Origin: a virus
Lineage: Duplodnaviria; Heunggongvirae; Uroviricota; Caudoviricetes
Direction: 5' to 3' (one strand)
Virus record (IMG/VR): IMGVR_UViG_2778261360_000015
Location: 1-3,308 of that record
DNA length: 3,308 nt
This document shows, in pieces, positions 2,053 to 2,136 of the stretch. A model generated the notes under the pieces. It did no database searches, was not told where the DNA came from, and was given only the letters and a program-made list of their open reading frames with translations. Made by a program: the position numbers and the translations under genes. Each line of letters begins with the position of its first letter. Within the stretch, counting starts at the first letter, position 1.

Positions 2053-2136
2053 TTATCCCCATCGACAAATCGAGAACACAACAAACGCTGCTGCGAATAC
2101 CACCCCCAGAGTTACGATTGCATCAGGCCAGCTCAT
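2053..2136 (-). CDS. Candidate 27-aa single-transmembrane-helix small membrane peptide (not in the supplied ORF track)
   Basis: Hand translation of minus-strand codons from 2136 down to 2053 gives MSWPDAIVTLGVVFAAAFVVFSICRWG then TAA. The ATG (2134-2136) overlaps the TGA (2133-2135) of the upstream 163-aa gene in an ATGA arrangement. AGGAGG (plus 2144-2149, read on minus) lies 7 nt upstream of the ATG. The stop is 4 nt before the ATG of the 80-aa gene. A 19-residue hydrophobic stretch (aa 6-24, nt 2065-2121) is flanked by a polar MSWPD N-terminus and an RWG C-terminus. Confidence 0.5.
   Translation of the reverse strand: MSWPDAIVTLGVVFAAAFVVFSICRWG

Follow-up and report, generated by a model that had tools for sequence, protein, structure and literature searches.

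Is the short interval between two adjacent phage genes leftover sequence, or does it hold a gene that standard annotation has missed? The question arises from the window, by which we mean the whole 3,308-nt stretch of Caudoviricetes DNA that was analyzed. On its minus strand, between a gene for a 163-amino acid protein and one for an 80-amino acid DUF4222 protein, the first-pass annotation had proposed a hidden 27-codon gene for a hydrophobic peptide. A 27-codon ORF alone is unremarkable, given that the six frames of the window contain 57 ORFs of at least 20 amino acids. From the evidence described below, we nevertheless consider it probable that this one is a bona fide coding gene for a 27-residue, single-pass inner-membrane micropeptide, which would be made early and act by packing of its transmembrane (TM) helix (Table 1).

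The signals surrounding the ORF were found to be those described in the first-pass annotation. An AGGAGG motif, read at 2149..2144, is separated from the ATG of the ORF by a 7-nt spacer (TGAATCA). The TGA of the upstream 163-amino acid gene (2135..2133) overlaps this ATG (2136..2134) to form an ATGA junction, and the TAA of the peptide is followed by CCAC and then by the ATG (2048) of the DUF4222 gene, such that 4 nt separate stop from start. The ORF had also been described as exactly filling an 84-nt gap. This is correct for length, both being 84 nt, but not for position, as the ORF is offset 4 nt upstream of the inter-CDS gap (2049..2132). An in-frame stop occurs in the window 12 codons upstream of the peptide ATG. 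Neither promoter-like nor terminator-like sites were predicted in the window between the genes flanking the ORF, and comparison of the window with Rfam gave no match at E≤1. The antisense frames of the ORF are also mostly stop-free. The codons for W26 and G27 (TGGGGA) double as a Shine-Dalgarno (SD)-like motif for the downstream DUF4222 gene, and because of this, part of the conservation at the 3' end of the ORF could reflect service to DUF4222 rather than to the peptide.

Table 1. Features of the peptide locus and its neighbors in the window.
Feature	Position	Strand	Remarks
27-codon gene, product MSWPDAIVTLGVVFAAAFVVFSICRWG	2053..2136	minus	ATG 2136..2134, TAA 2055..2053; predicted single-pass membrane micropeptide
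Shine-Dalgarno AGGAGG	2144..2149	minus	Within last codons of upstream gene, 7 nt before ATG
ATGA start/stop overlap (translational coupling junction)	2133..2136	minus	Sequence read
Conserved cassette, SD plus ORF	2052..2151	minus	72–80% nucleotide identity with otherwise unrelated prophage contexts (blastn)
Upstream 163-aa mosaic Ead/Ea22-type gene with truncated DUF551	2133..2624	minus	PF04448 on residues 146–161; phrog_60
Downstream 80-aa DUF4222 gene	1806..2048	minus	PF13973 at 7e-13; phrog_285
44-aa ORF between DUF4222 gene and excisionase	1668..1802	minus	phrog_3871, E=1e-31; PGAP: hypothetical protein
171-aa gene, ATGA overlap to next gene	2621..3136	minus	Strong phrog_9263 and phrog_631 matches
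3' end of true Ea22-like gene (ending LALRVADIRIKGE), running off window	3138..3308	minus	Resembles lambda Ea22 C-terminus (ending SDAGIRIKGE)

The upstream neighbor had been called Ea22-like. One phage record does name it 'Ea22', and PGAP names it 'DUF551 domain-containing protein', but a more fitting description is that of a mosaic protein of the Ead/Ea22 type in which the DUF551 domain is truncated. Its DUF551 match covers only profile positions 1–16 of 68 (GWISCSERMPDD), and these are joined straight to a terminal RQEVNQ. Alleles of 139–431 amino acids in other prophages end in the same way, and others carry the full domain, ending in WMPLPEPPQEVNQ at the stop codon. The possibility that the peptide ORF is a frame-shifted tail of DUF551 was considered and rejected, as full-length DUF551 proteins with this ending terminate right before the same ORF, and the ORF has no Pfam match. 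The Ead/Ea22/DUF551 locus is highly mosaic and recombining. For the 171-amino acid gene lying further upstream, no Pfam or NCBIfam family was found, and its PHROG 'DNA repair protein' match is weak (E=0.005). On the other side, the DUF4222 gene is followed by the 44-amino acid ORF, an excisionase, and an integrase, which are tightly packed and all on the minus strand. The 44-amino acid ORF is another conserved small gene.

Relatives of the locus were collected in several ways. The 151 nt around the ORF (window:2020-2170(-)) were used as a blastn query against 5426 complete E. coli genomes, 1056 of which (about a fifth) match the SD plus ORF segment, at up to six places per genome and with most best matches being 60–80% identical. 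Diverged alignments extend from query position 20 to 118/119 (window 2151 to 2053/2052), that is, from 15 nt before the ATG up to the stop, which makes the SD together with the ORF the conserved unit. Twelve diverged E. coli loci were picked down the blastn ranking by DNA similarity alone, blind to the ORF, and the 27-codon frame is intact in all 12. A two-anchor scan of IMG/VR, in which only the ends of the peptide were required and the middle was left free at 49–61 nt, returned a 55-nt middle at 120 of 120 loci, which corresponds to 27 codons. A further scan was anchored upstream, at the junction CAGGAGGTGAATCAATGA only, with no constraint on the body of the ORF. Among its 127 usable instances, 124 have 27 codons, two have 29, and one has lost the stop (50 codons); no frameshifts or premature stops occur. 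Frame-disrupting indels, which the first-pass annotation had associated with a chance ORF, are thus absent from both the blastn loci and the upstream-anchored set.

The substitution pattern was analyzed in a set of 76 unique DNA sequences, which encode 47 unique peptides. Entropy is concentrated at third codon positions (0.37, 0.27, and 0.81 for positions 1, 2, and 3, respectively), as are the changes reconstructed by parsimony on a neighbor-joining tree (55, 50, and 150, respectively). Codon changes comprise 118 synonymous and 115 nonsynonymous ones, for a synonymous fraction of 0.51, or twice the 0.23 expected (binomial p=5.6e-20, a value that is indicative only, because the set includes many close relatives and recombination conflicts with the tree used for parsimony). 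The median pairwise dN/dS is 0.26. The direction of the pattern, toward amino acid conservation, is unambiguous in these alignments, and, as judged from the substitutions, purifying selection acts on the encoded amino acids. With the frame, start, stop, and SD also conserved, the proposal of a real hidden gene instead of leftover sequence is upheld at the level of sequence.

Among the 47 unique peptides, M1 (ATG in 47/47), P4, A6, and W26 are invariant, and W3, G11 (46/47), and R25 almost invariant. Conservation extends to [ED]5, A13, A15, A17, [YF]21, I23, C24, and G27, and the family signature is M-x-W-P-[DE]-A...G...[YF]-S-I-C-R-W-G. Variable positions swap V, I, L, A, M, F, and T, and replacements in the core are exchanges among V, I, L, A, M, and F.

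The peptide is by far the most hydrophobic product among the 21 ATG-initiated ORFs of 20–45 amino acids in the window, with a mean Kyte-Doolittle value of 2.63 over residues 6–24. Its best 19-mer has a Hessa sum of −1.85 kcal/mol, the next most hydrophobic ORF reaching +5.7, and the family median on this simple sum is about 0, which is borderline. AlphaFold2, run in single-sequence mode on GGES+peptide, predicted one helix over peptide residues 3–26 (mean pLDDT 87). Hydrophobicity and predicted helix agree with the architecture put forward in the first-pass annotation, namely a probable single TM helix with a polar N-cap, which is short and acidic, and an Arg-Trp C-terminal anchor. Small residues are located on two opposite faces of the modeled helix, with G11/A15/S22 at 280–320° and A6/A13/A17/C24 at 120–160°. 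This two-sided pattern is what would be expected for a helix packed against helices on both sides. The positive-inside rule, applied to an acidic residue close to the N-terminus (D/E5) and a basic one close to the C-terminus (R25), predicts an N-out/C-in orientation.

Translation signals recur across the family. An SD-like motif precedes 139 of the 141 family instances, in two unrelated upstream contexts (CAGGAGGTGAATCAATGA and GTGGAGGATATTTTACGATGA), and the junction with the upstream gene is an ATGA overlap at 114 of the 141 loci and a TGATG overlap at 17. The SD-like site and coupling overlap are kept behind unrelated upstream genes, and this conservation argues for translational coupling of the peptide to the gene before it. 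The mosaic Ead/Ea22/DUF551 proteins encoded in front of the cassette have at least five C-terminal endings that are unrelated to one another: complete DUF551 (ending in WMPLPEPPQEVNQ) at 56 loci, a family ending in NGLISVEDILR at 38, the truncated DUF551 allele of the window at 21, and an Ea22-like coiled coil at seven, with various others beside. Downstream neighbors at the 141 loci are DUF4222-xis-int in 58, mok/hok in 35, another small TM ORF in about 10, and other genes in the remainder. Comparison of these loci indicates that SD and ORF move together, as a small cassette located at the 3' end of a polymorphic Ead/Ea22/DUF551 array. In contexts of the Stx-phage type, namely 933W (L004) and five further records (L014 and L016–L019), the peptide stop is located about 150 nt upstream of mokW/hokW, beside the annotated SokW antisense RNA.

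Homologs occur in the Stx phages 933W, VT2-Sakai, Stx2 II, Min27, and BP-4795, and also in ArgO145. A homolog is likewise present in the lytic rV5-like phage Av-05. The first-pass annotation had placed the peptide in a prophage setting; its presence in strictly lytic rV5-like phages means that the function is not specifically one of prophages or lysogeny. Additional homologs are found on ~95-kb non-mobilizable plasmids of E. coli (154 records), Salmonella (25), and Klebsiella (1), which look P1-like, judged from size and mobility. Phage PhiR5_1 (PV340545.1) encodes an identical peptide behind an upstream gene of 252 amino acids, as compared with 163 in the window. Several IMG/VR prophage contigs (L051, L069, and L085) carry the ORF at coordinates identical to those in the window, 2053..2136 (-), and the window accordingly matches the integrase-proximal end of such contigs.

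The host range of the peptide family is narrow. A pattern scan of GTDB contigs, with one genome per species, gave 30 matches, 28 of which were rejected as random (wrong length, out of frame, non-hydrophobic); the only carriers were Escherichia sp. and a 369-bp 'Acinetobacter' contig. The peptide was looked for, and is absent, in K-12 CPS-53 after yfdS, which encodes a DUF551 protein, and in lambda after ea22. The peptide in the Acinetobacter idrijaensis contig (L038, 369 bp) differs by a single residue from the plasmid-type allele of E. coli, and that in Actinobacillus phage vB_Apl-pPE4 (H45) scores like the E. coli phage copies and has 59% identity to the window peptide. Because both records are attributed to non-enterobacterial hosts, contamination or host misassignment is likely.

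Among known small proteins, the closest architectural analog appears to be the 27-amino acid E. coli protein YohP. YohP has a Cin-Nout topology, dimerizes through one glycine in the middle of its TM helix, and is inserted post-translationally by SRP through SecYEG or YidC (PMC7549839). It partly dissipates the membrane potential (bioRxiv 10.1101/2025.05.06.652344). Both YohP and the phage peptide are 27 amino acids in length and essentially one TM helix, with a mid-helix glycine (G11 in the phage peptide), and the Nout-Cin orientation established by experiment for YohP is the one predicted for the phage peptide from D/E5 versus R25. However, the two share neither sequence similarity nor a family model. 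YohP is chromosomal, stress-induced, and lysine-flanked, whereas the phage peptide is operon-coupled and has WP(D/E)A and CRWG at its termini.

Two other groups of small proteins invite comparison. Type I toxins (Hok/Gef, TisB, DinQ, ShoB) are likewise small, hydrophobic single helices, and in Stx phages the peptide is often beside hokW/sokW. Unlike these toxins, to which it has no homology, the peptide comes with a strong SD and coupling, and neither an antisense RNA (Rfam) nor a repressed mRNA of its own was found. Lambda Kil and other small proteins of the pL operon share with it the early-left/exo-xis/ea neighborhood upstream of xis-int and a presumed early expression. Kil, however, is a soluble 47-amino acid inhibitor of FtsZ, whereas the peptide is a predicted hydrophobic helix without a Pfam match to Kil, and lambda has no homolog after ea22.

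A course of action for the micropeptide can be proposed from these features. Its gene would be part of the early-left transcript, with ribosomes reaching it by coupling from the gene upstream. The peptide would therefore be expected early in infection or induction and not in a repressed lysogen. It would insert N-out/C-in, placing its acidic WP(D/E)A end outside and its C-R-W-G end at the interface with the cytoplasm, and would act via helix packing on the faces formed by G11/A15/S22 and A6/A13/A17/C24. Such packing could consist of self-association, or of docking on a host or phage membrane protein, with altered activity or membrane state as the outcome. A more elaborate version, which we hold to be distinctly unlikely, has the peptide as the conserved membrane partner of the hypervariable Ead/Ea22/DUF551 proteins. 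It would be YohP-like and oligomerize through its two small-residue faces, tether or sense the upstream protein at the inner membrane, and partly depolarize or 'silence' the host early in infection. The outcome, whether for Stx phages, P1-like plasmids, or lytic rV5-like phages, would be a bias in lysis-lysogeny or the exclusion of competitors.

The roles raised in the first-pass annotation, whether Kil-like, type I toxin, host-killing, superinfection exclusion, or defense, are possible ones for the peptide. That it is a membrane-damaging toxin of the type I or Kil-like kind, with host depolarization or growth arrest as its main effect, seems to us unlikely. [quoted passage not shown] Against these points, no homology to Hok/Gef, Kil, or any toxin family was found, nor to any defense-system protein, and the signs of a type I toxin looked for at the peptide ORF were absent, with neither an Rfam match to an antisense RNA (E≤1) nor a promoter-like site on the opposite strand. 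Furthermore, a strong SD with direct upstream coupling is at odds with the translational repression typical of type I toxins, and a single genome can have as many as six SD plus ORF matches.

The remaining explanations, which dispense with a separate functional peptide, are disfavored by selection on the amino acids, the conserved ATG and SD, the upstream in-frame stop, and conservation where no coupled gene follows. It is very improbable that the peptide is functionless and only the act of translation matters, as a means of handing ribosomes over from Ea22/DUF551 to DUF4222. The tight junctions in the window (ATGA overlap upstream, 4-nt spacer downstream) and the GGGGA SD-like motif in the last codons would suit such a hand-over, but the length is fixed at 27 codons, purifying selection acts on the amino acid sequence, and conservation of the cassette is just as strong in hok contexts, with the next gene ~150 nt off, and where a different gene follows. 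We give still less credence to the peptide serving the upstream protein as a C-terminal membrane anchor, the two being linked through ribosomal frameshifting or gene fusion. Rare database proteins do end in the peptide, preceded by an N-terminal extension or a fusion partner (P0017, P0020, P0022), and one partial CDS in its frame is named 'DUF551 domain-containing protein'. These extended forms, however, look like start-codon miscalls or deletions, the start codon is the same in every unique peptide, no slippery heptamer is present at GTGAATCAATGA, and the upstream partners are unrelated in sequence. Least credible of all is a chance or leftover ORF, or conservation owed to an RNA element or to a plus-strand 30-amino acid ORF (2047..2139). 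Although a 27-codon ORF is not rare in itself and the antisense frames are mostly open, the conserved frame, start, stop, and SD speak against chance, and an RNA element has no Rfam family match in its favor. Variation is highest at the third positions of the minus-strand frame, which are first positions of the plus-strand ORF, and the latter is therefore not the coding frame; the substitution pattern effectively refutes this set of explanations.

The expectation that standard annotation would overlook the gene was borne out. The peptide is unannotated in 15 of 15 RefSeq/PGAP E. coli loci inspected, and in the records of 933W, Stx2 II, BP-4795, ArgO145, Av-05, and PhiR5_1. A few GenBank records do contain one variant, under the name 'bacteriophage protein' or 'hypothetical protein FORC28_2400'. 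The 90% cluster of this variant also holds unrelated 121-amino acid DUF551 proteins, which we read as a clustering artifact and not as a fusion. No Pfam, NCBIfam, PHROG, or PADLOC family was found for the peptide, one weak PHROG 'membrane protein' match (E=0.1) having been set aside. A phmmer search with GGES+peptide against 1.84 billion representative proteins gave eight matches, each a member of the peptide's own family with a miscalled or extended end; more distant relatives were not found. Rare variants of the peptide (L215, L173, L235; proteins P0017–P0023) have a 2-codon extension (ending in RWGDK) or have lost the stop to yield 50–53 amino acids. Rare database forms within P0017–P0023 include a frameshifted one (P0018) and N-terminally extended or fused ones of 45–87 amino acids.

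A full-text literature search for peptide strings found no paper, and a paper modeling the exo-xis region makes no mention of a membrane ORF. The portions consulted of the EHEC translatome supplements (Hücker 2017, Neuhaus 2016) and of 'The Cryptic Bacterial Microproteome' contain no entry for the peptide; the Sakai RIBOseq study took in only ORFs of 30 amino acids or more, and the cells of the two EHEC RIBOseq studies were uninduced lysogens. The peptide family is new and nearly unannotated, but it is of a well-known kind, that of small single-TM phage and bacterial proteins.

Genes of 27 codons fall under the cut-offs of the annotation and RIBOseq pipelines encountered here. About a fifth of complete E. 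coli genomes have the peptide gene, as do the reference Stx phages 933W and VT2-Sakai, yet it is blank in RefSeq. Two studies of the region report that Ea22 favors lysogeny and that other exo-xis/ea genes affect prophage induction (PMC7093339, PMC3824215). Experimental deletions or clones of the exo-xis/ea region may have removed or included the peptide gene unnoticed. As a test case for membrane micropeptides encoded by phages, the peptide is clean and strongly conserved, and the family signature given above offers a fix for annotation of the 27-amino acid family.

A further small protein, the 34-amino acid XECs145 of O157 Sakai prophages, resembles the peptide in being unannotated, with an acidic N-terminus and a single TM, and is directly downstream of it in about 10 loci. 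XECs145 differs in being longer and unrelated in sequence, and is absent from the window. In supplement file 12 of the RIBOseq study of O157 Sakai (PMC5597208), XECs145 is scored as translated ('real'). At one locus (L053), the XECs145 ORF, at about 9195..9300 (+) and with product MSDDISLAMEGALAVIAVVGVYCLVVFLMDRLGN, has its own AAGGAGG site, and its ATG is located ~35 nt past the stop of the peptide homolog (9077..9160).
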